Source of the DNA: an uncultured bacterium
Lineage (GTDB): Bacteria > Babelota > Babeliae > Babelales > Babelaceae
Reading direction: 5' to 3'
NCBI GenBank assembly: GCA_963848965.1
Contig: CAWKFG010000001.1
Location: 128,001 to 192,000 of the forward strand
Length of the DNA stretch: 64,000 nt
The translations under genes were made by a program, and so were the position numbers. The notes under the pieces were generated by a model, which was given only the letters and a program-made list of their open reading frames with translations, made no database searches and was not told the DNA's origin. Within the stretch, counting starts at the first letter, position 1, and the number at the start of each line of letters is the position of its first letter. Positions 29,672 to 44,746 of this stretch are shown here, in pieces.

Positions 29672-30916
29672 TTATTGCTGTACTGGAGAGTCAGTATTAT
29701 CAGGAGCTGGTGTAACAGTAGGAATTCCTTCACGAAGTGTCTTAATGAAGTCTGGTCCATATACTACACTGCTTATAATAAATGTTGCTAGCACAGGAAG
29801 TTTAACTGGCTTGAAGCCCCACAATTTATAAGCTATATTACAGAACGTAAGTACTACAAGTACAGGATAGCCTAGCAAAATAAGTGGCTCTGAGTAAGCA
29901 AGCAACTTATCAAGCGTAAACTGTGCTATTACCGTAGTGGTAGCAAGTACTATAATAAGTGCTGTAGTATAATTGATCTTTTTGTTAAATACATCATTTC
30001 TCAGATATTCACTGACTACTGAAGCAAGTGCTATCATAGTAGATAAACAAGCAACTAAGACAGTGATACCAATAAAGAGTGACCCTGAAGGTCCTAAAAC
30101 TCTTTCTGTAACAATCTGGAACATTTTTCCTGCACCCAGAGCATGATTGAGACCTTGGCCATGGAAAGCGCCTAAATAAGCTATACCTGCATAGACGACA
30201 GCTAACAAAAATCCGCCAATAAGGCCGCCACGTAACATAATGCGTGCAAGAGCTCGTGAATCTGCAGCAGTATGTACATCAAGTGTTTTTCTTAAAATAG
30301 AAATAATGATATAGCCAAAGAATATAGTAGCTAACAGATCAAGCGTATTGTACCCTCTGTTAAATCCATAGAGGAATGAATCAAATGAGGATAAATTGGT
30401 AAGCTGAGCTGGCTTAGCTGTCCACAAACCTATTGCTATAATAACGCCAAGTGAGAGTAACTTGAGTGGACTCAAAATTTTACCAAGAAGATCTACAATA
30501 GTATTTTTCTTGTAGCAGCAAATAAAAGTGAGTACTGCAAATGCAAGGCTAAATGGCAAAATTGACATATGTTTTGACAATGTAGGACCCATAAGATCAT
30601 ACGTAAGACCTACAATTCGTGGCATAACCAATAACGGACCTATAACGAGCATACAAAAGAGAATAAATAGTGCTCCAGGAATTTTGCCAATTCTATAGAA
30701 GAAAGCTCTATAGTCACCATCAAAGAATACCATACCAATGAGGCCTGCAAGTGGTAACAAGATGCCACTCAAAATAAAGCCAATAAGGCCGAGTCCTACA
30801 TAGTTACCAGTAACTACACCAGTTTTAAGAGGAAAAATAAGGTTGCCTGCACCAAAAAGCATTGCAAATATTGCAAGGCCGGTGACAACTGTATTCGATT
30901 GTAAATACTTTTTCAT
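29672..30916 (-). CDS. brnQ: Branched-chain amino acid:cation symporter
   Basis: FAMLFGAGNLIFP, IVDLLGKILSP, GYNTLDLLA, LVACLST; about 12 TM segments. Confidence 0.93.
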   Translation of the reverse strand: MKKYLQSNTVVTGLAIFAMLFGAGNLIFPLKTGVVTGNYVGLGLIGFILSGILLPLAGLIGMVFFDGDYRAFFYRIGKIPGALFILFCMLVIGPLLVMPRIVGLTYDLMGPTLSKHMSILPFSLAFAVLTFICCYKKNTIVDLLGKILSPLKLLSLGVIIAIGLWTAKPAQLTNLSSFDSFLYGFNRGYNTLDLLATIFFGYIIISILRKTLDVHTAADSRALARIMLRGGLIGGFLLAVVYAGIAYLGAFHGQGLNHALGAGKMFQIVTERVLGPSGSLFIGITVLVACLSTMIALASVVSEYLRNDVFNKKINYTTALIIVLATTTVIAQFTLDKLLAYSEPLILLGYPVLVVLTFCNIAYKLWGFKPVKLPVLATFIISSVVYGPDFIKTLREGIPTVTPAPDNTDSPVQQ

Positions 30917-31001
30917 TGAATTCCTTTATGCACACTATACGGGCATTAGTTGTTTTTATAAAAATATGAGATACAAAAATTTAAGGAGTCGGTAGAGGAC
31001 T

Positions 31002-31121
31002 TTAGAGAATAATCGTAGCCGTAATGGCCCACATCAGATAAGAATAACAGGCAAAGAAGAGAGAAGAAAAAGAAGTAGTAACCAAAGCTTTTTTTACAAC
31101 GTGCGGTAATTTATTGCCCAT
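31002..31121 (-). promoter_or_regulatory. Putative leader peptide of brnQ (39 aa, ends ITATIIL)
   Basis: AAGGAG RBS; MGNKLPHVVKKALVTTSFSSLFFACYSYLMWAITATIIL*; 23-nt pyrimidine tract at 31053-31075. Confidence 0.65.
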
Positions 31122-31249
31122 CTCAGGCTCCTTTACTTAGAGTTAATGTATTTCACTATCTCTTAAAATATACTAACATTCAATTTAATGCAAGTATATT
31201 TTGTGCTGTAACGCATGTACCCTTTGCTAAACTGTTGCTCCTTAACTAT

Positions 31250-31634
31250 AAGGGACGCTGTCCCTTTAACCCTGGCAAGGGCACGCCCTTGCAACCCGCT
31301 TTGTTTGCTCAGAGCTTCGCTCCTCGCTAGTTCTTTAGAGCAAAAAAACGTACCGATTTTTTGCAGTTGCACGCCGCTACGCGAGTCTCCATCCCAGGTG
31401 GAACGCACCTGGTCTGACGACACTCTGTTTACAGAAATACTATTGATGTGAAACTACCAATAAGTGGAACGAGAGTCAGCAACAGGCAACCAGGGAGTTC
31501 CCCTGGTTGCTTAAATCGCGTAGCGACTGCTATTGTTAAAAAACGCTGAGCGTTTTTTAACGCAGAAAAAGAATAAAGAAGCAAAAGGGTTCTAGGGCCT
31601 TGGCCCTAGCGGGGTGAAGGGGCGGCGCCCCTCA
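31250..31634. repeat. GC-rich multi-hairpin element with inverted hairpin doublets at both ends (MITE/REPIN-like)
   Basis: Eight stem-loops in about 385 bp; the two ends are structural mirror images. Confidence 0.65.
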
Positions 31635-31635
31635 G

Positions 31636-32883
31636 TTAGCTGTTAGAGAAGGTGTCTAGAGCAGCACGTAGGCCTGCAGCTATGCGGGTAGTTTCAGTTG
31701 CTTGAGCGTAAGGTAGCCAGCTTGTGCGAGCATATGTTTGCAGGGGAGTAAGAGTTGGCAGAAGGTTGGGTGACCGGCAGAGTGTATGCTTAGTTGCAGG
31801 ATTAATAAGATGTAGATGGCAGTCATCAATAGAAGCCTTGATAGCGAGGTCTAGAGTGGATAGCAGAGGTTGTGCTTGATTGAGTGTATGCAGGAGGGCA
31901 GGGATAAGAACAACGAGTGGTAGGGGTGAAAGGGCGTTGCGTATGGCTTTAACTTCAGGAGAGTCGGTGGTGAAGAACGGTAAGTTGTATTGGTTGAGAA
32001 ACCAGAAGTTGAAGTGTCCGAATGCGATAGTGCTTTCGTGAGCGATAAGGCGTATGTCAAAGATGGGCTTTTTGTGATGATAGGGGAGATTGTGAATCTT
32101 GAAGAATTCGCGGAATGTTTGATAGCTTGCTCCGCTTGGAGTAGAGAATTGATCTTGTCCTTGCACACCATCGCCCTCAGAGTAAAGGCTAATTATTTTT
32201 GAAAAGAGAGGATGGAATGCATAATGTGCAGTTTCTGCTTGGATAGGAGTACCCAGGAGAATAAGATTCTTAATGTTTAGATGCTTTTTTTCATGATTTT
32301 CTGCTTCTGCAAGGTAAAGAAGCACATTACCGCCATGACTATAGCCGCAAAGTGTGATAGTGGTCTCATAGCCTTGTAAGCGATAGCTATGTTGGAGTGT
32401 ATGGAGGTGCTGGTAGAGATTGAATGCAGCCTCTTTGCGATGGGTAGCACTGAAGATACCGGAGAACCCGAAGGTATAGTAGTCGCTGTTGGAAGTAGGG
32501 TTAAAAAGGCGAGAGAGGGTATCGTAGGCACCGATAGTTTGGTATGCTCCTTTTTTGCTGAGCTCAGGTGGAAGTGTACGCTGGCAATAGAGACCGAGGG
32601 TAGAGGTGTTTATTTTTGTGAGTCCTTCATTGAGCATAAGTGAATCTTCTTGAAAGAGGGGATCTTTGCGAACTTTTGCCATACAACGAGCATACCAGTC
32701 TTCTTTAGCAATAGATTGTGTATATGATTTGTAGGGGTTTAAAAGAGCAAGACCCGGTAATATAGTACCATGTACAAAGATAACGATGTTCTTTTCTTTA
32801 CTAAAATAGTCGAGTTTTATTTCAAAAGTAGGCGCAAGAAGAACTGTACAGAGAATGAGCAGGCGAACAATAAATAAAACCAT
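31636..32883 (-). CDS. Alpha/beta-hydrolase-like exported or membrane-anchored protein
   Basis: IFVHGT and GYSHGG nucleophile elbow, LILLGTP; AAGGAG RBS before ATG 32883; hydrophobic N-terminus. Confidence 0.7.
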   Translation of the reverse strand: MVLFIVRLLILCTVLLAPTFEIKLDYFSKEKNIVIFVHGTILPGLALLNPYKSYTQSIAKEDWYARCMAKVRKDPLFQEDSLMLNEGLTKINTSTLGLYCQRTLPPELSKKGAYQTIGAYDTLSRLFNPTSNSDYYTFGFSGIFSATHRKEAAFNLYQHLHTLQHSYRLQGYETTITLCGYSHGGNVLLYLAEAENHEKKHLNIKNLILLGTPIQAETAHYAFHPLFSKIISLYSEGDGVQGQDQFSTPSGASYQTFREFFKIHNLPYHHKKPIFDIRLIAHESTIAFGHFNFWFLNQYNLPFFTTDSPEVKAIRNALSPLPLVVLIPALLHTLNQAQPLLSTLDLAIKASIDDCHLHLINPATKHTLCRSPNLLPTLTPLQTYARTSWLPYAQATETTRIAAGLRAALDTFSNS

Positions 32884-33020
32884 TGATAGCTCCTTGAGGA
32901 GAATCCTTTTATTTAAGTTTAGTTGAACTTTAAGAATCCGCAACGGCCCTATGCTTGTTTGACATAAAGTAATAATATTTTATGATAATAAATAAAACTA
33001 ATATTAGTGTGGGAAAATAT

Positions 33021-34466
33021 ATGTTTAAAAAATATTATTTATTATCGCTGTTAAGTGTCTCGTATCTTTTTTCGATGGAACCGGCTTTAGTGTCTTCTGT
33101 TGATTTTAATAAAACGTATTTAGGAGTATTGCCACAAGAGTTGCTTTCTCAGATCGTTTTGTATGTAAGTATGCTACCACAGCTTAAAAGTTGCGTGATT
33201 GAGCCTCTTGATCATCAAATCCTTGTATCTCGTGTTACTGAAGAACAATTAAGAGCCAAGGCAGAAGAAACTTTTTCTGCATTTATCAAAAGTGTTCAAA
33301 CTCTTGGTGCTTTATTAAAGATGGATAAAAAGCATCTTGAAAGTGAAGGTATTCATAATACTTTTTTAGATGTTCTTTCAGAACATCTTCAGCAGTACGA
33401 AATAAAGCTTATTGCTGAGTTCTTTAGAAAAACAGACGCAGGTTCTATGCTTGCACCAGCGCTCATCTCAGCAGATAAACATAAGGTTTTAGAATCTGTA
33501 GAGCAGTTGAATCAAGCTCTTGATAATTATTTAGAAAAGCATTCTGTGCTTTCTACATACCTTCCAAGAGAGGAGATCTTGAAGATAGATGCTGAGGATA
33601 ATACGATAAAAGATCTTTTCTTGCAGTTTCAAACTTTCCTTCTAGACCGTGCTGATGTTGGTTCACACGTATCAATCATGGCGATGAGATCATTACTAAG
33701 TAATGCTGATCTTACTATGCCATTAGACTCTGCTGGTATTTTATCAGATTTTAGTGATGATGATATAATTTATCCTGATAAAGCAGCTTTAAAAGCAGCT
33801 CCACTCTATTATGCTTATGCCACCAAGTCTGCAGCAAATGTTTTTAAGAATATGTGCTATTCTTCGATTGAGGACCCGCTTGTAGAGTTACTTTATTTAA
33901 CACCCTTAGGAAGCAGATTTGATAAAATGTTTATTTCAGCGCTTTTAGCTACTCCGCAAGCGTTTAAATGGTTAAGAAAGTATTTAGCAAGTACTCCTAA
34001 AGCAGCAACCGACTGCTTGTGTCTTGCAGCAGCACTTGATAATAAAGAGCTTGCTCTTCTAGCTCTTGAGTGTGGAGCAGATAGTAATGGCTTTCAAAGT
34101 GTTTATTGCTTTAAAGGAACCTATCTTATAGCTTTGAGCAAAAATAAGAAACTAGCAACGTATATTACTAGATTTACTCCATTACACATTGCTGCTATTT
34201 GTGGTCATAAAGAGATAGTAGAAGTTTTATTACAAAAAGGTGCTCGTCTAGATGTGGCTGATAGCCAAGGAAGTACTGCTCTTACAGAAGCAATTATGCA
34301 TCGCAATAAAGAAATGGTTAAGTTCTTGCTTGAAGCTGGTGCAAGTCCTTCTTTTCAAACGCCAGGAGGTTTAGATCCTTTAGAAGTTGCTAAGCAAATA
34401 AGTAATACTAATGTTCGAGAAGAAATAATTGCGCTTTTGAAACACTATTTTGCTAAGGAGCTATAA
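33021..34466 (+). CDS. Signal peptide + F-box-like motif + C-terminal ankyrin repeats
   Basis: LFS-MEP; YLGVLPQELLSQIVLYV; FTPLHIAAICGHKEIVEVLL, GSTALTEA. Confidence 0.8.
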   Translation: MFKKYYLLSLLSVSYLFSMEPALVSSVDFNKTYLGVLPQELLSQIVLYVSMLPQLKSCVIEPLDHQILVSRVTEEQLRAKAEETFSAFIKSVQTLGALLKMDKKHLESEGIHNTFLDVLSEHLQQYEIKLIAEFFRKTDAGSMLAPALISADKHKVLESVEQLNQALDNYLEKHSVLSTYLPREEILKIDAEDNTIKDLFLQFQTFLLDRADVGSHVSIMAMRSLLSNADLTMPLDSAGILSDFSDDDIIYPDKAALKAAPLYYAYATKSAANVFKNMCYSSIEDPLVELLYLTPLGSRFDKMFISALLATPQAFKWLRKYLASTPKAATDCLCLAAALDNKELALLALECGADSNGFQSVYCFKGTYLIALSKNKKLATYITRFTPLHIAAICGHKEIVEVLLQKGARLDVADSQGSTALTEAIMHRNKEMVKFLLEAGASPSFQTPGGLDPLEVAKQISNTNVREEIIALLKHYFAKEL

Positions 34467-34598
34467 AAAGGCACAGTGGCACATCTTGCTTAATTATAAA
34501 TATAAAAATGTACAATCAGGCAAGTTGCGCATTGTGTAAATGTCAAGATTGGTGTATCATTAAAAAAGCAGTGCTTCAAAAAACCTAAGGGAGGTCCC

Positions 34599-35639
34599 AT
34601 GAATCTTTTATGGCAGTTGGGAGTATTAGTATCACTAATGCTAGGGAGTCAACTCTTTGGAATGCAAGAAGAATTTAGGGAAGTGAGTCGTACTTATGGT
34701 CAATATATAGCAGAATTTGTCTCCCGGTTAACTCATGAGCAATATAAGCAGCTTGTCTTGCATCCTTATTTTTTTGATAATCCTTGTGAATTACTTGAAA
34801 GTACTTTTGTACAAGAGCTTACAGAAGAACAAAAGATGCTTTTTTTAAAAGTTGCTAGAGAATATAATTCAGATACGTGGTCTGATTTTAAGGAACTAGT
34901 ACTTAAAAATCTGTTTGCTTTTAGTGCATTAACTCCAGAAGCTTTAAAAGATCTTCAAATAAATCAAATAAGCGTTGAGCAATTTGATGCTCCTTGGAAC
35001 AAGAGAATACAAGAATTTATAAAGAATGATAAAAAAATAAAAGAATTTACATGGAACTTATTAGAAAGATCGTGGTGTCCCATTGATTCTCAAGATTTGT
35101 GCTCTTCAACACTATCACTATTTAAAGAAGATGAAATGGTAGAAGAGATACAAACGTCATTTCAAAACAAGCTTTCTCCTGGATGGTGGCAGTGGACATG
35201 GCAAAAGTGTAGTGCAGTAAAAGAATGGTGGTACAGTGACCAATCCGAGCTTAGAGATCAACAGTGGCTTATAAAGTTTGGCTCTCTGTTTTCTAAATTA
35301 AAACGAGAACAGCGTTGGTTTCTCATTGATATTATACAGATTTTGCAAGGATATAAAAATATTCTTCTTGATGATGCCTATAATAGTAAACTAATAACAG
35401 TTGCTCTTAGCATGTTTTCAAATCAAAGAGACTATCTTCGTGCTGTATGTTACTGGTATCTTGAGGCTTTTGTATTTCAGCGTCTTCTCGAGTATGGTTA
35501 TTGTAAACCTCATGAGCGGGAACTCTTTGCAAAGTCTTTTAAAGATAAGTTTGATGAGCATATAATGCATCTTAATGAGCAAGAACAAGCGAGAGCACAT
35601 AATATTAGAAGAGTTTGTAAAATTGTTTTGCTCTATTAA
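34599..35639 (+). CDS. Exported hypothetical protein
   Basis: GGAGG RBS; signal peptide ending LFG-MQEE; no recognisable domain. Confidence 0.75.
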   Translation: MNLLWQLGVLVSLMLGSQLFGMQEEFREVSRTYGQYIAEFVSRLTHEQYKQLVLHPYFFDNPCELLESTFVQELTEEQKMLFLKVAREYNSDTWSDFKELVLKNLFAFSALTPEALKDLQINQISVEQFDAPWNKRIQEFIKNDKKIKEFTWNLLERSWCPIDSQDLCSSTLSLFKEDEMVEEIQTSFQNKLSPGWWQWTWQKCSAVKEWWYSDQSELRDQQWLIKFGSLFSKLKREQRWFLIDIIQILQGYKNILLDDAYNSKLITVALSMFSNQRDYLRAVCYWYLEAFVFQRLLEYGYCKPHERELFAKSFKDKFDEHIMHLNEQEQARAHNIRRVCKIVLLY

Positions 35640-35735
35640 GCTGTACTTTAACCTGCTGAATCTTTTTCTTTCATAACTATCATTATTTTTTTGCGTTTTT
35701 CCTCAGAGAGCTTGATAATTGGAATTATTATATTT

Positions 35736-35973
35736 ATGAAATCATCACGATTAACGTCAAAATACCAAGCAACAATTCTCTAAAAAAATAAGAGAATTGC
35801 TTAATCTTAAGGCAGGCGATACCATAGTTTTTGACATAATAGATAAAGGTACTGTAGTAATGCAAAAAGCTAAGAAATTTGATAAAGAGTACTTAGAAAT
35901 GGTATACAAAATGCTCAATGAATGGGATTCAAAAGAGGATGATGAAGCGTATGAACACCTTCAAAATCTTTAA
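35736..35973 (+). pseudogene. AbrB/MazE-family antitoxin, frameshifted
   Basis: MKSSRLTSKYQATI / KKIRELLNLKAGDTIVF...EWDSKEDDEAYEHL; frameshift near 35779. Confidence 0.8.
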
Positions 35974-36145
35974 TGTGCCTATAACAAATCTTATAAGTTG
36001 TGGTCTTCAGAAGCCTCCAGTGATCCGTTTAAAACTATTTACCATTGATCATAGATTAGTTATTGATAAGATAGGCACGTTAGCATATGAAGACCAAGAC
36101 AAAGTAAAAGAACATATGGCTTTAGTATTTGCAGCTTTGCTTTGA
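35972..36145 (+). pseudogene. C-terminal remnant of PemK/MazF-family toxin
   Basis: VPITNLISCGLQKPPVIRLKLFTIDHRLVIDKIGTL directly after the antitoxin; N-terminal half missing. Confidence 0.7.
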
Positions 36146-36778
36146 GAAAACTTTCTTAAAAAGTTCCAAGTCTTCGCTGCTAAAGAGTATAAAATAAATA
36201 TGAGTTAATGTTGTAGCTTGTGTCTTAGCAAAATCTATAATTGTCTTAAGAGCACTAGTAGCGGCTCGTTCTTTTGGAAAAGCGTATATAGCAGAACTTA
36301 TAAAAGGAAAAGCTATACTTTGAGCTTTTTTCTCAGTAGCTAATTCTAAGCTGTGTAAATATGCTTCTTTTAGCAATTTGTCTTGCTCTTTACTATCTTT
36401 AATAATGCGGCAATCGGGGCCAACAGCATGAATTATATGCGTAATACCATATGTTTGTAAGTTAAAGCTTGGAGTAATACAAGCAGTTCCTGTAGGACAA
36501 CGAATACCATTCTTCTGAGCAGGGATACTGTTACATGCTTCTTGTAAAGCATCTTTTCCGGCTGCTTTGAAAATAGCACCACATACTCCACTGCCTGCTT
36601 GCAGCTCTTTATTTGCTGCATTAACAATAATATCTACCTGTTGCTTGGTTATATCTCCTTGCATACAGGTTATAGTAACGTTGTTAATTTTATATGAAAA
36701 TGGTGTACTATCTGCGCTACTGTTTTTGCATACAGTAACAGTGAGTACAGTCAATAAGCACAAAACAAATTTTTTCAT
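36122..36778 (-). CDS. Macro domain protein (ADP-ribose binding/hydrolase) with signal peptide
   Basis: QGDITKQQVDIIVNAAN, GSGVCGAIFKAAG, IIHAVGP, SIAFPFISSAIY. Confidence 0.92.
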   Translation of the reverse strand: MKKFVLCLLTVLTVTVCKNSSADSTPFSYKINNVTITCMQGDITKQQVDIIVNAANKELQAGSGVCGAIFKAAGKDALQEACNSIPAQKNGIRCPTGTACITPSFNLQTYGITHIIHAVGPDCRIIKDSKEQDKLLKEAYLHSLELATEKKAQSIAFPFISSAIYAFPKERAATSALKTIIDFAKTQATTLTHIYFILFSSEDLELFKKVFSKQSCKY

Positions 36779-36938
36779 AATTTTCCTTGAGTATGGCCGT
36801 ATTTGATTTTGTCTTTAGTGTACCACTCTAGAAAGATGATTCAACTGCTGCGGTAAAAGATTACTATGCTGTTATAGAGAGCTTTCTACTGTACAGTATA
36901 TGCTTTATCAACAATAAGTACCAAACGTTGAGAATCTA

Positions 36939-38003
36939 CTATATATGAGTGTTTACAGTATTTGCAGACTCTTTAAATGGCATATCATAGAAATCTTCTC
37001 CATAAGCAAAGGGCTGGAAATAGATACAAGGTTTTAGACCAGTACGAGCAAAAAACGGGGTAAGAAGTTCCTTTAAGTTCTCTTTAAATGTTTGAAAAAA
37101 CTCTTTTTCTTTAGGTACTAAATAATAGGTAAATTCCTTATTAGGTAGTAAGAAGACGATAGTACATTCTTTTTGTTTTTGCTTAACAGCATAACATGCT
37201 ATCTCATATATATAATAAATGGCTTCTAGATACTGTAGAAAAGGAAAAATTTGTGTGTGATCGAAATCCAAAAGATTTTTGCTTTGAGTCAAAGGACAAT
37301 AATCTAAACAAGAGGGTGTATAACCTATGGTGCGTAAAGAAAAGCGAGCATAGAGGTCACGCGGCTCTGTACGTATGAGCTGGGAGCTTGCTTTTTTAGT
37401 TACTTTACCAAAGTTACATGTATAGAGCCAAGAAAAGAATTTGTTAGCTTGTAAGATCTGATATGAAGTACTTAAAGGAAGAGAAAGCAAAGTTGTAGAA
37501 ACGTCGCTTAAAAGAGGACATTCGTCTTTCTTGAGTACTTTTATGGAGGATTCTTGAATTACTTTTTTATAATCAGGACATGCACGCAACTTTTGATCTT
37601 TGGTTGAAAAATAGCGCCATGCTGTAAGATCGGTAAGCCAAAAAGTGGCCTGAAATGGTAGTAATTGAGTGAAAATAGTATCTTGATACCAGCGGGTACC
37701 GCTCGATGACAGGTTTCCAAAGTGGTCAGTAAACCAAAGAACGATATGAGGATTTTTTTTAGTTTTAAGAACTTCTACTACTTTTTTACTAGAAAGCTCG
37801 TGCTGAAATCCAAGAGTTTTGTAAAGGGCTTTTCTTTCTTCAAGTGTATATTGGCGAAGGCTTTTAAGAAGAGTAAGTGGCATCTTTTTAATGGCTTGAT
37901 CGTAGTGTATTGTTACTTCAAAAGAAGATGCTTTTTGTGTGAGTAAAAAGGTTCCTATTGCTAGAGTTATAAGTGTTATGAACATAAGTAAGAATTTATA
38001 CAT
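36939..38003 (-). CDS. Hypothetical exported/anchored protein, paralog of 38048..39142
   Basis: Shared motifs WFTxxFG, ATFWLTDLxAW, LQYLExxYY, PNKEFTYYLVP, YFQPFAY. Confidence 0.8.
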   Translation of the reverse strand: MYKFLLMFITLITLAIGTFLLTQKASSFEVTIHYDQAIKKMPLTLLKSLRQYTLEERKALYKTLGFQHELSSKKVVEVLKTKKNPHIVLWFTDHFGNLSSSGTRWYQDTIFTQLLPFQATFWLTDLTAWRYFSTKDQKLRACPDYKKVIQESSIKVLKKDECPLLSDVSTTLLSLPLSTSYQILQANKFFSWLYTCNFGKVTKKASSQLIRTEPRDLYARFSLRTIGYTPSCLDYCPLTQSKNLLDFDHTQIFPFLQYLEAIYYIYEIACYAVKQKQKECTIVFLLPNKEFTYYLVPKEKEFFQTFKENLKELLTPFFARTGLKPCIYFQPFAYGEDFYDMPFKESANTVNTHI

Positions 38004-38047
38004 GATAATCCTTTAAAGGGGGAACACCTTACAGTGTTCCCTTTGTA

Positions 38048-39142
38048 TTATGGCAGATATTTCTCTAACTTTGATTTGTTACAAGGGTTACCTACAGCTC
38101 TATACGGTGATGCAAAGAGTGTATTATCTTGTGGTGTATAATAAGCAAATGGTTGAAAATAGACTGAGATACGAAACCCTGGCGGTAATGAAAATGTAGA
38201 GATAACAGTTTCTAAGTCTTGCTTAAACGTGCTCAAGAGTGACTGTTCCTGTGGTACAAGATAATAAGTAAACTCTTTATTTGGTATAAAAAAGACAATA
38301 GAACACTCTTTTGCAGACGGATCATTAGTTAGCGTATCTTTAATAATGTTAGAGGCATAGTAGAGGCCCTCAAGGTATTGAAGAAGACGAAAGATGAGCG
38401 TAAAGTCAGCTGTAAGAAATGTTTGCCGAGCAAGTTTAGTACTTACTATGTCTAATAAAGGGGATGTATAGCCTAGATTTTGTAAAGAACAAGGAGCTCT
38501 TCCTTCGCGTCGTTGCGTTTTACATAAAAGATCGGCCTTATCAAGGATAAGCTCAAACAAAGAAAATTCTTCGGTCTTATTGGTAAGAGCTTTGAAAAAG
38601 TCCTGTGAAAAAAGAGGGCGATACCGTTTTTTAGTGCATGTAACTTTTGCTAAAACTTCTGAACGCTTTGTAGTCAGAGGACATTCTTCTTGCTTTAATT
38701 GCTCGTTATTGTCTAATTTTGCAATAAGTGCACTATAGTTTTGTGATAGTTGCTTTTTATCAATTGCAAGAAAACACCATGCTCGTAGATCGGTGAGCCA
38801 AAAGGTGGCTTGAGGAATTTTATTAAAAAGATTGGTGCTATACCAGAGTGCAGTAGAAGGCATGATACTACCAAAGTAGTTAGTAAACCATATGACAACC
38901 TGAGGATTGTTAAGAGCAGCTATAGTTGCAACTGCTTTTTCTAGTGGAAAGAGCTCTTTAAAGAGGGCAAACATTTGTGCTTGTGTCTCCTCATTTGCAG
39001 TCCGAGCACTTCTCAATTCTTCTAAATAAGGTTTAAGTTTATTAATACAAGGATCGTAAGCGACCGTTAAGGAACTTGGTTGTTCCATTGCTTGCATGAA
39101 TCCCCCTGTAAAGGATAGAAAGAGTAAAAGTAGCGTTTTCAT
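38048..39142 (-). CDS. Hypothetical exported protein, paralog of 36939..38003
   Basis: Signal peptide ending MQA-MEQP; same shared motifs. Confidence 0.8.
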   Translation of the reverse strand: MKTLLLLFLSFTGGFMQAMEQPSSLTVAYDPCINKLKPYLEELRSARTANEETQAQMFALFKELFPLEKAVATIAALNNPQVVIWFTNYFGSIMPSTALWYSTNLFNKIPQATFWLTDLRAWCFLAIDKKQLSQNYSALIAKLDNNEQLKQEECPLTTKRSEVLAKVTCTKKRYRPLFSQDFFKALTNKTEEFSLFELILDKADLLCKTQRREGRAPCSLQNLGYTSPLLDIVSTKLARQTFLTADFTLIFRLLQYLEGLYYASNIIKDTLTNDPSAKECSIVFFIPNKEFTYYLVPQEQSLLSTFKQDLETVISTFSLPPGFRISVYFQPFAYYTPQDNTLFASPYRAVGNPCNKSKLEKYLP

Positions 39143-39156
39143 GATTTTTCTTTCGT

Positions 39157-39859
39157 TTAAAAATATGTTAAAAATTGTTGTAATTCGTTTTGCTCAGGGA
39201 GCTCTTGAATAGTTTGAGTATTCCATGTTCCAATGAGTGTTCCGTCCTGTAAAAGAGCAATTTCTTGAGCAGCATTCTTTACAAAATCCATATCTTGGCT
39301 CGAAAAGAGCACAGTAATTCCCTGTGTGCTTAATGTCTTAAGGAGCTCTGTAAGAAGTGCACTATTTTCAGGATCTAGTGCAGACGTAGGTTCATCCATA
39401 CACAGTATTTGTGGTTCTAAAACTAATGCTCGAGCAAGTGCAACTCGTTGTTGCTGTCCTCCTGACAATTGGGTAGGGTATTTATCCTTGTGAGATTGGA
39501 TACCAAAGTAGGTAAGCATAGAAAGCGCTTTCTCATATGCTTGGGCTTTTGTGAGTTTTTTAGTAACTACAAGAGACTGCATGCAATTTTCAAGCGCTGT
39601 CAGGTGTGGAAACAGGTTATAGTGCTGGAATACAAGCCCTATAGTTTGGGCTTTCTGTTGACAAGAAAGAGTTTTTAGTTCTGTTTGGTTAAAGGTAATA
39701 GAACCAGTATATGAACGTTTCAATTGAGTTATGCATTCTAAGCAGAGTTGTCTTACCCGCGCCACTTTTTCCAATGAGTGCGGTAATGCTTCCAGGCATA
39801 AGAGTCAGTGAAAGTTCTTTTAAAATAGTTTTATAAGAAAGATTTTGTACGATTAACAT
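39157..39859 (-). CDS. Polar amino acid ABC transporter ATPase, frameshifted near 39737
   Basis: Walker A GKSGAGKTT in one frame; LSGGQQQRVALARAL and MDEPTSALDPE in the next; one extra base between KTTLLR and CITQL. Confidence 0.88.
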
Positions 39860-40490
39860 TATATTTCCTTTCAAGAAGTTGACCAAATGCTGAAACTGCA
39901 CAGGTGAGTACAAGGTATATACCGGCAATGCTTAATGAGACACCAAGTGGGTTGAATGAACGATACATAATGTTCATGCTCATCTTAGTAAGCTCGAGTG
40001 TTCCTATGCTTGCAAGGATTGAAGTACTTTTCATAACCATAACGTATTCGCTTGTAAGTGCAGGAAGAGCAGCGCGAAACATTTGTGGTACTATGATATA
40101 GCGCAGTTGTTGCATGTTTGTGTATCCTAAAGCGTGAGCTGCTTGCCATTGTCCACGGGCAATGCTATTAAGTGTTCCTCGTATAATTTCAGAGACGTGT
40201 GCAGCTGAACAGAGGCCTAGAGTGATAACACCTGCAGTAAAAGGAGAGAATGTGATACTTGTAAGCTGTGGAAGTACAAAATAGACAAGCATAAGCTGAG
40301 CATACAGAGGTATTCCTCGTAAAAGCAGGGTTAGGATACCAAGCGGTACAGCAAGGGCTGCTGTGCGCAGCCAAGAGCAGCGCACAGTACCTATACCTAT
40401 TCCTATAACAAGACTTATTGCTGTTGAAACTATCCAAAGTTTACAGGTGGTGATAGTTCCTTGTACTAACAAGGGAATCCAAGCTGTCAT
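39831..40490 (-). CDS. Polar amino acid ABC transporter permease
   Basis: RGIPLYAQL, SEIIRG, GQWQAAHALG, IIVPQMFR. Confidence 0.93.
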   Translation of the reverse strand: MTAWIPLLVQGTITTCKLWIVSTAISLVIGIGIGTVRCSWLRTAALAVPLGILTLLLRGIPLYAQLMLVYFVLPQLTSITFSPFTAGVITLGLCSAAHVSEIIRGTLNSIARGQWQAAHALGYTNMQQLRYIIVPQMFRAALPALTSEYVMVMKSTSILASIGTLELTKMSMNIMYRSFNPLGVSLSIAGIYLVLTCAVSAFGQLLERKYNVNRTKSFL

Positions 40491-41275
40491 TGTACCTCCT
40501 TAGAAAACCATTGCTTCTCTTTTTGTGCTAAGAAGCCCTCTTTTTTAAGATCGGCTATGATAGCTTCTATTTTAGAGATAAGTGCGGTATTCTCCTTGTT
40601 TATTCCTATCCCGCAGCCAAGGATTTTATACTTCTCACTAAGTGGTACAACTAGTGAAACAAGTTCTGGATACTTCTTTTTCAAACTTTGATAGAGTGCA
40701 GGTTCAAGTAATGTAGCAAGTGCTTTGCCATACTGAATCTCGAGGATAGATCCTAGAGGATCTACACGCTTAATTTCAAAGCCTTTAAAGCTTTCAAGAA
40801 TTGGCTCTTGGCTAGAACCAGGCTCAACGCATACAATAGCGCCAGGAATAGAAGAAAGATCTTCAAGCTTTTGTACTCCTGTAGGAATTGTTTTCCAGAA
40901 TATAAGCGGTAAAGAGGTAATAGGCTCTCCTTGGTAAGGAACCATGGCCATTTTGGCAAGCCGTTCAGAGGTGATATCAAGACCGGTCATAATAAAGTCT
41001 ACGGAGCCTTGTTGCAGTGCCTGAATAAGATAGGCGGTATCCATATCTTTTATGAGGAGCTTTTTATTGAGCCTTCGTGCAATCTCTTGAGCAACATCAA
41101 TATCGAAGCCTTCATAATTGCCTAGCTCATTCATACTTACATAGGGTGGCCATCCACTCATGGTGCCCATTACAATAGTTTTGCTTTTATCAACTTCAGC
41201 AGAGCTTTTATACAGTTGTAATCCAATAAACGTACACAGTGGTACTAAAGCTAGAAAATATATGTTTTTAAACAT
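40487..41275 (-). CDS. Polar amino acid ABC transporter substrate-binding protein (family 3)
   Basis: WPPY, EGFDIDVAQEIARRL, GLDITSER. Confidence 0.92.
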   Translation of the reverse strand: MFKNIYFLALVPLCTFIGLQLYKSSAEVDKSKTIVMGTMSGWPPYVSMNELGNYEGFDIDVAQEIARRLNKKLLIKDMDTAYLIQALQQGSVDFIMTGLDITSERLAKMAMVPYQGEPITSLPLIFWKTIPTGVQKLEDLSSIPGAIVCVEPGSSQEPILESFKGFEIKRVDPLGSILEIQYGKALATLLEPALYQSLKKKYPELVSLVVPLSEKYKILGCGIGINKENTALISKIEAIIADLKKEGFLAQKEKQWFSKEVQ

Positions 41276-41429
41276 AGTTATCCTTTAATAAATTCAAATA
41301 GAAATTAATTTTAATAACAAATAAGTTAGGGAAAATAATTATTTTTGTACAGTACTCTTTAAAACAAAGAGATGCTTTGCTTTAACAAATACTTACAAAT
41401 GATGTATAAAATAATGGGAATGCCAAAGA

Positions 41430-41522
41430 TTAATGGCAATGATGATAGTGGTGATGAAAAGAAGAAAGAGAAGAAGGAGAGAGAATAAAAGATTGTTCTA
41501 AAAGATACTTAATAGGTATCAT
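41430..41522 (-). promoter_or_regulatory. Putative His-rich leader peptide (30 aa)
   Basis: MIPIKYLLEQSFILSPSSLSSFHHHYHHCH*; GAAAGGG RBS; 30-nt pyrimidine tract at 41456-41485. Confidence 0.8.
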
Positions 41523-41562
41523 AACATGCCCTTTCTTTGTTTAAATATAATTCTAACTCTTT

Positions 41563-41591
41563 AGTATAAGCATGTTTTATGCAAAATGCAA
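41563..41591 (-). promoter_or_regulatory. Sigma70-type promoter upstream of the His leader
   Basis: TTGCAT-N17-TATACT on the minus strand. Confidence 0.6.
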
Positions 41592-42812: not shown

Positions 42813-43421
42813 TTACTCTAACAAACGAATTACTGCATCATACTCGTCGTGCTCAAAGCTTGGGGCTTTCTCTTTTTCTTTGCGTGCAATATCTAAAGCT
42901 GTTTCACCGAACTTATTCTTAATTGTTTTATCAGTGCCACGTTTAAGAAGAATATTAACAGTTCCTTTACGGCCATATCCAGCAGCGGTCATTAAAGCAG
43001 TTCCACCAACTTTATTTTGTAAATTAGGTTGAGCGCCGTTATCTAACAGTAAAGAGATAACATCATCTTTTTCCCAAAGGCCAGAGGCGAGCATTAAAGG
43101 AGTGCTTCCTTGAGAATCGCGGATATTTACATCTGCTCCATGCTTTAAGAGAGAACGAATGATAGAAAGATATTCTTGATTCACCTCTTCACCAAGTGTG
43201 TTGAAATTATAAGCAAGAAAATGAAGAATATGAACACCTGGCGGATTATCCCATTTTTCATTAGGATTAGCTCCTGCTTCAAGAAGACGCTCAACTTTTT
43301 TGACATCTGGAAGACGTACAGCACGTATTAATGCCTCACGCGTTGTACTTTGCGCCTTTTCCATACTATAGAGGCTACAGAACGTACTTGCTACCGCAAA
43401 AAATAAAAAGATATTTTTCAT
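42813..43421 (-). CDS. Exported ankyrin repeat protein
   Basis: Start reassigned to ATG 43421 (MKNIFLFFAVASTFCSLYS-MEK); GSTPLMLA, GGTALMTAA, GETALDIA. Confidence 0.88.
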   Translation of the reverse strand: MKNIFLFFAVASTFCSLYSMEKAQSTTREALIRAVRLPDVKKVERLLEAGANPNEKWDNPPGVHILHFLAYNFNTLGEEVNQEYLSIIRSLLKHGADVNIRDSQGSTPLMLASGLWEKDDVISLLLDNGAQPNLQNKVGGTALMTAAGYGRKGTVNILLKRGTDKTIKNKFGETALDIARKEKEKAPSFEHDEYDAVIRLLE

Positions 43422-43633
43422 AATAAATTCTTTATTTATTCTAATAATATATAGTGTTTCTATTAAAGATAGCAAAAATAATGCAATAGTCAATGTTTTT
43501 GGGCTCTCTATCTTATACAGTATGGTCTGGGAGTCTTTCGATTTTTGTGATAAAGAAATTTTAAAAAATTCTTTGCGAATGTAAACCTCTCTTTGCCATA
43601 CTAAGAGAAAACAATTTTCACTGGGTAAAATAT

Positions 43634-44746
43634 ATGGAACTATTGCCAAAGATTATGAAAGCAGTGCGAGAAGGAAATAAAGAAGCACTGCGGCCTCTTT
43701 TAGAGCAAGGAGATAGTATTAACCAAGAGTGCTATGGTTCAACTCCTTTATTAGCTGCAGTAAGCTCTGGATACCAAGATGTGGTAACAGAGCTGCTTTT
43801 GCATGGTGTAGATCCTAATCGTACAGGCTTAGATTCAACGACACCTTTGGTACGAGCTGTTGCCCTGGGACACAAAAGAATGATAGATCTTTTGCTTTCT
43901 CATAAAGCTGATCCTAATGGGCATTTTAGTGGTTATGATACACCTTTATTGCGTGCTATTGCTAAAGGACATAGCGAGATAGTACATATTCTTCTCAACT
44001 ATGGAGCAGATGTCAATTATAGTATTAAGCGAGAGAGTCTTGTAGAGCCAGTTCGAGCTCCTCTCATCGTTGCTATTAAACGAATGCTTGCTTTTTCTCA
44101 AGAGTATTCAGCGGGATATAGAAATGAAGCCTTTGAAATAGTAAAGCTTCTTTTAGAGCATAATGCAAATCCTAACAGTATAGGTAATTATCGTGAATGC
44201 TTGTATGGAATTTTGCTGCGCAATGTAAAGCCCGTAGAAAAGCCACAAGAAGATAGTGACTTTCAAGAAGTACCTCTTTCTCTTGCAGCACGAGCAGGAG
44301 ATAAAGAGCTTACAAATGTTCTCTTGCAGTATGGAGCATCTATTGAAGGCGGTGGTAAATTGAGCGAAATTCCTTTACATACAGCCGTTGAAGGAGAGAA
44401 GCCAGAAATGGTACAAGAGCTTATCCGGTTTGGTGCATTTATTAATAGTCAAGACTACTATGGTCAAACAGCGGTACATATTGCTGCTTATAATGCCACC
44501 TCATCAGACATTGCTTATGAATGCTTAAAAATTCTTTTATCTTCAGGAGCTCAAGTCAATATACTAGACTATGAGAGAAACACTCCTTTAATGTTCATCT
44601 TTGCTTATAGAGGCCCTTCTGAGAGTACTCCTCATGTTGAGCGTGTAGTAAAACTACTTTTAGAATCGGGTGCGGACATAAGTATCGTTAATATAGATGG
44701 AAGAGATGCTCGAGCATTAGCACAAATACGAGGATTTGAGTTATGA
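43634..44746 (+). CDS. Ankyrin repeat protein, no signal peptide
   Basis: GSTPLLAAV, TTPLVRAV, DTPLLRAI, IPLHTAV, GQTAVHIAA. Confidence 0.9.
   Translation: MELLPKIMKAVREGNKEALRPLLEQGDSINQECYGSTPLLAAVSSGYQDVVTELLLHGVDPNRTGLDSTTPLVRAVALGHKRMIDLLLSHKADPNGHFSGYDTPLLRAIAKGHSEIVHILLNYGADVNYSIKRESLVEPVRAPLIVAIKRMLAFSQEYSAGYRNEAFEIVKLLLEHNANPNSIGNYRECLYGILLRNVKPVEKPQEDSDFQEVPLSLAARAGDKELTNVLLQYGASIEGGGKLSEIPLHTAVEGEKPEMVQELIRFGAFINSQDYYGQTAVHIAAYNATSSDIAYECLKILLSSGAQVNILDYERNTPLMFIFAYRGPSESTPHVERVVKLLLESGADISIVNIDGRDARALAQIRGFEL

Follow-up and report, generated by a model that had tools for sequence, protein, structure and literature searches.

Leader peptides with pyrimidine-rich tracts ahead of two amino-acid importers in a Dependentiae genome: candidate starvation sensors with a possible Rho-dependent read-out

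Introduction

Leader-peptide attenuation, its occasional use on transporters, and the swaps between one sensing system and another are already known (PMC2965389, PMC9413887). Here, we describe two short upstream open reading frames (uORFs) found in a 64,000-nucleotide stretch of DNA, called the window from here on, from a genome of the Dependentiae (Babeliales; 1.73 Mb, 88.7% complete). One of them, uORF1 or the brnQ leader, precedes the carrier gene brnQ, and the other, uORF2 or the His leader, precedes the operon of an ATP-binding cassette (ABC) importer of the polar amino-acid family. Like the enterobacterial leaders hisL, ilvL, leuL, and thrL, they have the form of a short translated leader in which a codon run, cognate in the His leader, adjoins the stop codon, and in the model proposed here, as in hisL-type attenuators, the supply of charged tRNA would be sensed via the position of the ribosome. 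Contrary to the hisL type, these leaders are placed on the importers of an auxotroph and not on biosynthesis, a conserved pyrimidine tract lies ahead of the codon run, and neither a canonical terminator nor a convincing antiterminator was found in the leaders of this genome.

The closest systems in terms of the proposed read-out are tnaC, speFL, and cruR, described as established Rho-dependent uORF attenuators with a shielded Rho utilization (rut) site, which in the case of cruR is located inside the uORF (PMC12360218). In the leaders described here, a ribosome held at the 3' end of the uORF is likewise predicted to shield a rut site that is nearby or intragenic and, additionally, both cruR and tnaB couple such a switch to an importer. 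The trigger would be a different one, however, since tnaC, speFL, and cruR are arrest peptides sensing a ligand (Trp, ornithine, and Cu, respectively), whereas here it would be the starved codons. An artificial polypyrimidine Rho terminator has reportedly been the subject of one study.

In Firmicutes, T-boxes control the transporters of histidine and of branched-chain amino acids. Both the T-box and the HisR/hisXYZ systems have the same kind of target as these leaders, a histidine ABC importer (or brnQ), and differ from them in the sensing device: HisR is a protein repressor and the T-box is a tRNA-binding RNA, whereas here this role would fall to a translated leader. Finally, pyrBI is a coupling-dependent attenuator which shares with these leaders an overlap between the last part of the ORF and a hairpin that the ribosome would melt, and a run of U often lies past the stop codon here. 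Contrary to what is proposed here, the pyrBI logic would switch the importer off in starvation unless a stalled ribosome covered the hairpin, and the hairpins found here have 4-6 bp.

Inside protists, Dependentiae and environmental Chlamydiota must import most amino acids. The loci described below suggest that the ribosome itself is the gauge, acting on importers rather than on biosynthetic operons. Full-text literature searches, covering main texts, returned no description of these leaders in Dependentiae or Chlamydiota.

Two uORFs with a shared layout

The two uORFs have the same layout, which is conserved among several genera and, in the case of the His leader, in two phyla: a polar N-terminus, a pyrimidine-rich stretch read as Ser/Phe/Leu, and a codon cluster adjoining the stop codon. 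A sequence-only reading of the window had interpreted both of them as parts of one candidate ribosome-gated Rho attenuation system, and its description of the loci is borne out, as the uORFs, their ribosome-binding sites (RBSs), the unbroken pyrimidine runs of 30 nucleotides (nt) in the His leader and 23 nt in the brnQ leader, and the terminator-free spacers of 154 and 85 nt are all in place. Its claim that cognate codons are packed against the stop is correct for the His leader, with 6 His among the last eight codons, and weakly supported for the brnQ leader, which has 4 Ile/Leu in the last eight codons (the final three being Ile-Ile-Leu) and belongs to a family enriched instead in Cys, Trp, Met, and Ser.

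The presence of both uORFs with this layout is more than chance. Over both strands of the genome, there are 13 pyrimidine runs of at least 23 nt, against 0.62 expected, and 34 of at least 20 nt, against 4.2 expected. Most of the latter (26) are antisense to purine-rich coding sequence; four are intergenic, two of which are those of the His and brnQ leaders, and the other four have the sense orientation, within a short ORF or where a gene begins, three of them encoding signal-peptide-like N-termini. Furthermore, the His leader ranks first for single-residue clustering among the 3272 uORFs located upstream of crude gene calls. A wider leader system was not recovered in this genome, as the genome-wide scan gave these two leaders and one look-alike.

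This look-alike is a uORF with a Shine-Dalgarno (SD) site located outside the window, at L156:2640-2747 on the minus strand (G000:C1). It encodes MIPISIPITSRSTNLFISLLLFSSFYRPFYYLFNF, contains a 19-nt pyrimidine run and has a Phe/Tyr-rich end. The uORF lies 126 nt upstream of the gene for a 413-residue protein that belongs to no Pfam family and whose N-terminus is signal-like; only two of 40 relatives have this protein.

The His leader and its alternation with a HisR-like gene

Relatives of the binding protein of the ABC system were found in 67 loci with at least 150 nt upstream, which, after removing four duplicates, left 63 distinct loci from Dependentiae and Chlamydiota. In 33 of these, the orthologous ABC operon is preceded by a His-rich uORF, defined as one whose last 12 residues include 4 His or more, so that the conservation expected for a true leader is found. 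These loci belong to Dependentiae and to metagenome-assembled genomes (MAGs) labelled as Parachlamydiaceae, Simkaniaceae, Rhabdochlamydiaceae, Chlamydiales, and others, and AGGAG-type sites lie ahead of the orthologous leaders.

When a slightly looser criterion is used, the 63 loci are divided into 34 with a His leader, 13 with a TrpR-family gene directly upstream, and 16 with neither of them, and none has both. The TrpR-family gene matches PF01371 (82.7 bits in L035), the family of HisR, which has been described as the histidine repressor of his operons and of the hisXYZ ABC histidine transporters (PMC9413887). The ABC system itself belongs to the polar amino-acid family, all the specific NCBIfam models scoring below their cut-offs. 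Since the His leader alternates with a HisR-like repressor gene, the distribution argues that this system imports histidine (basic amino acids) and that the leader is its histidine-responsive control element. Lineages would then differ in what governs the same histidine importer, a leader peptide in some and a HisR-like repressor in others. From this evidence, we consider it very likely that the His uORF is a regulatory leader.

The loci with a HisR-like PF01371 gene in the place of the His leader are L035, L037, L043, L044, L045 (the same as L095), L066, L067, L071, L072, L073, L091, L108, and L113. A different variant is seen in L040, where the binding-protein gene is preceded by the same Ser/Phe-rich stretch followed by RRRARRI in place of the His run. 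This locus suggests a leader module with an exchangeable codon cluster, and its importer may have switched to arginine.

The last two sense codons and the stop codon of the His leader take part in a small hairpin whose loop contains the stop codon. This topology is also found in the predicted folds of L062 and L034, and by eye in eight of the 15 leaders listed, and the folding of five aligned sequences, which placed no gaps, returned no pairs in a covariation test. The hairpin is probably a pause element.

The control of import rather than of biosynthesis, as had been suggested for these loci, agrees with the gene content of the organism. The models His_biosynth (HisA/F), HisG, and KARI_C have zero matches in this genome, at its 88.7% completeness, and each of them matched 14 of 14 control genomes. 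Because these models were not found, import is probably the only source of histidine and branched-chain amino acids; their synthesis seems to be missing from the organism, and import would therefore be the step under control.

The brnQ leader and its possible signal

The brnQ leader was searched for in other genomes as an ATG-initiated uORF with an SD word, 25-60 codons long and ending 40-170 nt upstream of the gene. Such a uORF is present at 11 of the 28 non-self brnQ loci, compared with 14 of the 518 upstream gaps in this genome, an enrichment whose nominal P value of 8e-11 is overstated by the non-independence of related genomes. AAGGAG-type sites lie ahead of the orthologous uORFs. Among the six Chlamydiota brnQ loci, three have an Ile/Val-rich leader ending in VVFVVRSAH or IILISVRVNIVRQ.

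The peptides themselves are weakly conserved, with a mean column identity of 22% compared with 57% for BrnQ. In the last 25 codons of 12 brnQ leaders, Cys is enriched 4.2-fold, Trp 3.1-fold, Met 2.45-fold, and Ser 2.4-fold. Phe, Leu, Ile, and Met have been reported to compete at the chlamydial BrnQ (PMC11140210), and for this reason it is conceivable that the brnQ leader senses a broad hydrophobic signal. Altogether, the brnQ uORF is probably a regulatory leader, a reading that we favour with some reserve.

Two of the Chlamydiota loci, L142 and L144, have Ile/Val-rich leaders of 19 codons ending in a 6-bp GC hairpin, UGCGCC...GGCGCA in the first and with GGCGUA as the second arm in the other, with the stop codon in or beside the loop. 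The hairpin is followed by a C-rich and almost G-free spacer that extends to the RBS of brnQ.

The pyrimidine tract as an RNA-level feature

The 30 nt ahead of the first His codon are 77% pyrimidine over the 33 His leaders, compared with 50% further upstream, and in 28 of these leaders the tract is at least 70% pyrimidine. The choice of synonymous codons follows the same trend. Serine is encoded by 144 UCN and 10 AGY codons, so that UCN makes up 94% of the total versus 66% in neighbouring genes, and UCY alone accounts for 75% versus 34% in the reference. Leu codons ending in G are reduced to 7% (24% in the reference), and G at fourfold sites to 9% (16.5%). Across the 12 brnQ leaders, the use of UCY for Ser is 60% versus 26%. 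Locus by locus, 30 of 31 His leaders and 10 of 12 brnQ leaders use UCY more than their local reference according to sign tests, whose P values are overstated because loci from related genomes are not independent. Since constraint on the peptide alone does not predict such a Ser codon bias, the tract is, as judged by codon usage, a conserved RNA-level feature under synonymous-site selection. A conserved tract directly ahead of the regulatory codons is no part of the textbook attenuator, and it makes these loci candidates for a starvation-sensing Rho attenuator.

Proposed mechanism and its read-out

According to the model proposed here, when His-tRNA is scarce the leading ribosome would stall on the His run and later ribosomes would queue behind it; for the brnQ leader, the equivalent signal would come from the tRNAs of hydrophobic or sulfur amino acids. 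The stalled ribosomes would cover the G-poor, pyrimidine-rich RNA that extends from the 3' half of the leader into the beginning of the spacer. Upon good supply, the ribosome would instead reach the stop codon and depart, leaving this RNA naked, and Rho would load on it and halt the RNA polymerase, either within the spacer or where the importer gene begins. The stop-in-loop hairpin would be the pause element that synchronizes the polymerase with the ribosome, a role it has in the his leader of enterobacteria. Taken as a whole, including the Rho step, the proposal that both short ORFs are genuine leader peptides on which the ribosome reports the supply of charged tRNA and sets importer expression is a tentative one, to which we incline slightly less than to its opposite. 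Its extension to a starved-codon, Rho-read attenuator common to two phyla of host-dependent bacteria, working with no terminator/antiterminator pair, is a more doubtful proposition. Such an attenuator would be modular, consisting of a rut-like tract, an exchangeable codon cluster (His, Arg, or hydrophobic), and a stop-in-loop pause hairpin; stalled and queued ribosomes would hide the loading site of Rho, and the charging status of tRNA would switch the importers on.

Several observations agree with a role of Rho. An intact rho, whose presence the sequence-only reading had called for, is encoded as a 427-residue ORF with the Rho RNA-binding domain (PF07497, 114.9 bits). The scans of both spacers gave no terminator-like site, that is, a hairpin with a U-tract behind it, on the minus strand. 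Canonical terminators are nonetheless in use in this genome, as they occur at 47 of 220 sampled gene 3' ends with a folding free energy (dG) of -8 or lower, compared with six of 220 shuffled ones. A rut site is expected to be C-rich, G-poor, and unstructured over about 70-80 nt; in the His leader, the composition of an 80-nt window (C 26, G 3) falls in the top 0.014% of the genome, and yet this sequence is U-rich and flanked by hairpins. The brnQ leader is predicted to be unstructured (z +1.31 compared with shuffles), in agreement with the earlier description of a hairpin-free device, which does not hold for the His leader: this one contains hairpins of 5 and 24 bp, and its whole fold is more stable than that of the shuffles (z -3.66, with none of 100 equally stable). 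With neither a terminator nor a sequestered RBS predicted, Rho is the best candidate in this genome by elimination. A Rho-dependent read-out is plausible but unproven, and we would put it at somewhat under an even chance; the earlier interpretation is partly supported.

Other results weigh against this interpretation. The tract of the His leader is U-rich rather than C-rich, with 11 C in 30 nt, and the 80-nt window of the brnQ leader (C 19, G 6; top 1.8%) is ordinary for the C-rich strand. Among the 12 brnQ leaders, Ile, Leu, and Val are enriched only about 1.1-fold, so the sensed amino acid is not plainly a branched-chain one. The tract is equally strong in the His leaders with a canonical terminator (0.79, n=6) and in those with none (0.76, n=27); it is not, for that reason, a simple stand-in for the terminator, and it may serve another purpose than the loading of Rho. 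The spacers of the His family are more structured than their shuffles (mean z -1.40; 28 of 33 below 0 and 13 of 33 below -2), that of the window including the 24-bp hairpin. Moreover, the Simkaniaceae-type leaders L092 and L094 resemble compact classical attenuators, with a terminator and a competing upstream hairpin, and the His leader of the window aligns to the Rfam family His_leader (RF00514) with 20.2 bits (E 0.56), the gathering score being 49.

One rival explanation is classical hairpin attenuation, where the stop-in-loop hairpin and the spacer hairpin would be the pause and the terminator, the latter with a poor U-tract, of a his-type attenuator, and Rho would be unneeded. The consensus of RF00514 does share with the His leader a small hairpin with the stop codon in an 8-nt loop, and the sub-threshold alignment places UGCCA...UGGCA on this 5-bp element of the model and, weakly, the upper part of the 24-bp hairpin on its terminator. 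Terminator-like hairpins (dG of -8 or lower) are present in six of the 33 orthologous His leaders (1.9 +/- 1.9 in shuffles) and in two of the 12 brnQ leaders (0.6 in shuffles), the upstream hairpin of L092 competes with its terminator, and UUUUU is moderately enriched over the 30 nt past the end of the leader ORF, being present there in 19 of 29 His leaders (12.2 expected) and nine of 12 brnQ leaders (4.4 expected). Nevertheless, hairpin and U-tract are found together in neither spacer of the window even though canonical terminators are common at gene ends, and the only alternative pairing seen by eye in the His leader has 5 bp, which makes no convincing antiterminator. Brought to the RF00514 model, none of 18 orthologous loci matches at E <= 10, and thus, by these scores, the His leader is a case of resemblance and not of membership; in addition, the brnQ spacers are no more structured than expected by chance. 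Altogether, classical attenuation seems unlikely. Even less so does translational attenuation convince us as an explanation, in which the tract would pair with the purine-rich RBS of the importer (or of the leader) and a stalled ribosome would set the RBS free, which is the mechanism of erm leaders. The SD site of the leader itself is the partner of the tract in both minimum-energy folds, duplexes of -7 to -14 kcal/mol are possible between tract and SD, and some attenuators are known to sequester the RBS in place of terminating (PMC9413887). However, a tract forms no better duplex with the SD of its own locus than with that of another locus (rank fraction 0.43-0.53), and when the last 20 leader codons are masked, the predicted unpaired probability of the importer RBS hardly moves (from 0.43 to 0.45 and from 0.45 to 0.48), rising by more than 0.1 in four of 33 and two of 12 loci; the unstructured brnQ leader argues in the same direction. 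With no locus-specific complementarity and no predicted change in RBS accessibility, tract-RBS pairing was not supported, and translational attenuation is rated as improbable.

Other explanations move the effect away from transcription or from the ribosome altogether. Stalled ribosomes protect the mRNA in erm leaders, and a ribosome parked near the 5' end could in the same way shield the importer mRNA from nucleases; an unstructured, terminator-free leader would be compatible with this, but the pyrimidine bias is left unexplained and nothing found at these loci points to it specifically. An effect on mRNA stability also has little probability. A somewhat better, although still rather unlikely, alternative is that uORF1 encodes a small hydrophobic membrane protein, such as a BrnQ accessory, and is not a sensor, the pyrimidine run being a mere coding signature of Phe, Leu, and Ser. 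The C-terminal halves of the brnQ leaders are indeed hydrophobic, a loose SFS...W motif recurs among them, Ile, Leu, and Val are not enriched, and other sense-strand pyrimidine runs of this genome encode signal-peptide-like N-termini. What speaks against a conserved protein is the weak conservation of the peptide relative to BrnQ, its variable length and Trp position, and the prolines inside its hydrophobic part; a constraint acting only on the protein does not predict the synonymous-site bias of the Ser codons, and the same layout is found in the clearly regulatory His leaders. The least probable of all, and hardly credible, is that the His/Cys-rich peptide of the other leader senses a metal instead of histidine, as the copper-binding CruR leader does (PMC12360218). 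C-termini such as HHHCH and HHCHHHHC would suit this role, whereas many leaders lack Cys, the 5' arm of the small hairpin is made by the Cys codon, the binding protein is of the polar amino-acid family, and the operon has a HisR-like repressor as the alternative to this leader.

Hungry-codon frameshifting on the slippery tract, which would carry the ribosomes through the spacer, was also considered and rejected, as the +1 and +2 frames past the stop codon are no longer than in shuffled spacers (mean percentiles of 0.47 and 0.49).

Features of the two loci and their surroundings

The features of both loci are collected in Table 1. The two putative promoters were recognized by eye and lie under the threshold of the promoter scan; they share the -35 element TTGCAT and the common form TTGCAT-17-TAT(A/T)(C/T)T.

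Table 1. Features of the brnQ and His leader loci, given as positions in the 64-kb window. Both loci are on the minus strand and separate from each other.
Feature	Position (strand)	Description
brnQ leader, putative promoter	31165..31193 (-)	TTGCAT (31193..31188), 17 nt, TATTTT (31170..31165)
brnQ leader, Shine-Dalgarno site	31128..31134 (-)	AAAGGAG
brnQ leader ORF (uORF1)	31002..31121 (-)	39 codons and TAA; peptide ends in TTSFSSLFFACYSYLMWAITATIIL (...MWAITATIIL)
brnQ leader, pyrimidine tract	31053..31075 (-)	unbroken; codons S F S S L F F
brnQ leader, spacer	30917..31001 (-)	5' end G-poor; predicted unstructured (fold of -8.5 kcal/mol)
brnQ, LIVCS family carrier	29672..30916 (-)	PF05525, 231.8 bits, 2e-68; TIGR00796, 253.7 bits, above cut-off
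His leader, putative promoter	41563..41591 (-)	TTGCAT (41591..41586), 17 nt, TATACT (41568..41563)
His leader, SD-like site	41529..41537 (-)	AAGAAAGGG; purine-rich, ends 6 nt ahead of the ATG
His leader ORF (uORF2)	41430..41522 (-)	30 codons and TAA; peptide MIPIKYLLEQSFILSPSSLSSFHHHYHHCH
His leader, pyrimidine tract	41456..41485 (-)	unbroken; Ser/Phe/Leu/Pro codons, directly 5' of the His codons
His leader, codon cluster	41433..41456 (-)	H H H Y H H C H
His leader, stop-in-loop hairpin	41421..41438 (-)	UGCCA-UUAAUCUU-UGGCA; 5 bp, 8-nt loop with the leader stop codon; RNAfold -6.9 kcal/mol
His leader, spacer hairpin followed by AAUAAUUAUUUU	41344..41399 (-)	24 bp, interrupted, AU-rich, -17.1 kcal/mol; not a canonical terminator
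His leader, spacer to the binding-protein gene	41276..41429 (-)	154 nt
Polar amino-acid binding protein, SBP_bac_3	40487..41275 (-)	best NCBIfam match to the Lys/Arg/Orn subfamily, below cut-off
ABC permease	39831..40490 (-)	BPD_transp_1, HEQRo type
ABC ATPase, in two frames	39157..39859 (-)	Walker A part from the ATG at 39859, remainder in ORF 39774..39157; one extra base between them

The frameshift in the ATPase gene may reflect either true decay or an error of sequencing. For the binding protein, the nearest records with a name come from MAGs of Candidatus Dependentiae and Babeliales.

Upstream of the putative promoter of the brnQ leader and reaching towards the preceding gene, positions 31200..31640 on the minus strand contain a GC-rich, palindrome-filled element of about 400 nt. 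This is a dispersed non-coding repeat, with four other near-full copies in the genome at 81-88% identity, one at 73%, and several partial ones. The region contains no Rfam family at gathering level, no tRNA, and no tmRNA; a structured RNA of a known family upstream of uORF1 was rejected, as the only Rfam matches are at chance level and the region is this repeat.

At the G000 contig ends (C1 1-7000, C4 1-13000, and C5 1-3400 and 121000-128000), 80-nt windows have C+G counts far above the rest, for example C 36 and G 18. An rRNA, foreign DNA, or mis-binning could account for these ends. The two importer loci have genes for ankyrin-repeat proteins and for a macro-domain protein between and beside them, at 32982..34466 (+), 36122..36778 (-), and 42813..43649 (-), and these neighbours fit a protist-associated lifestyle.

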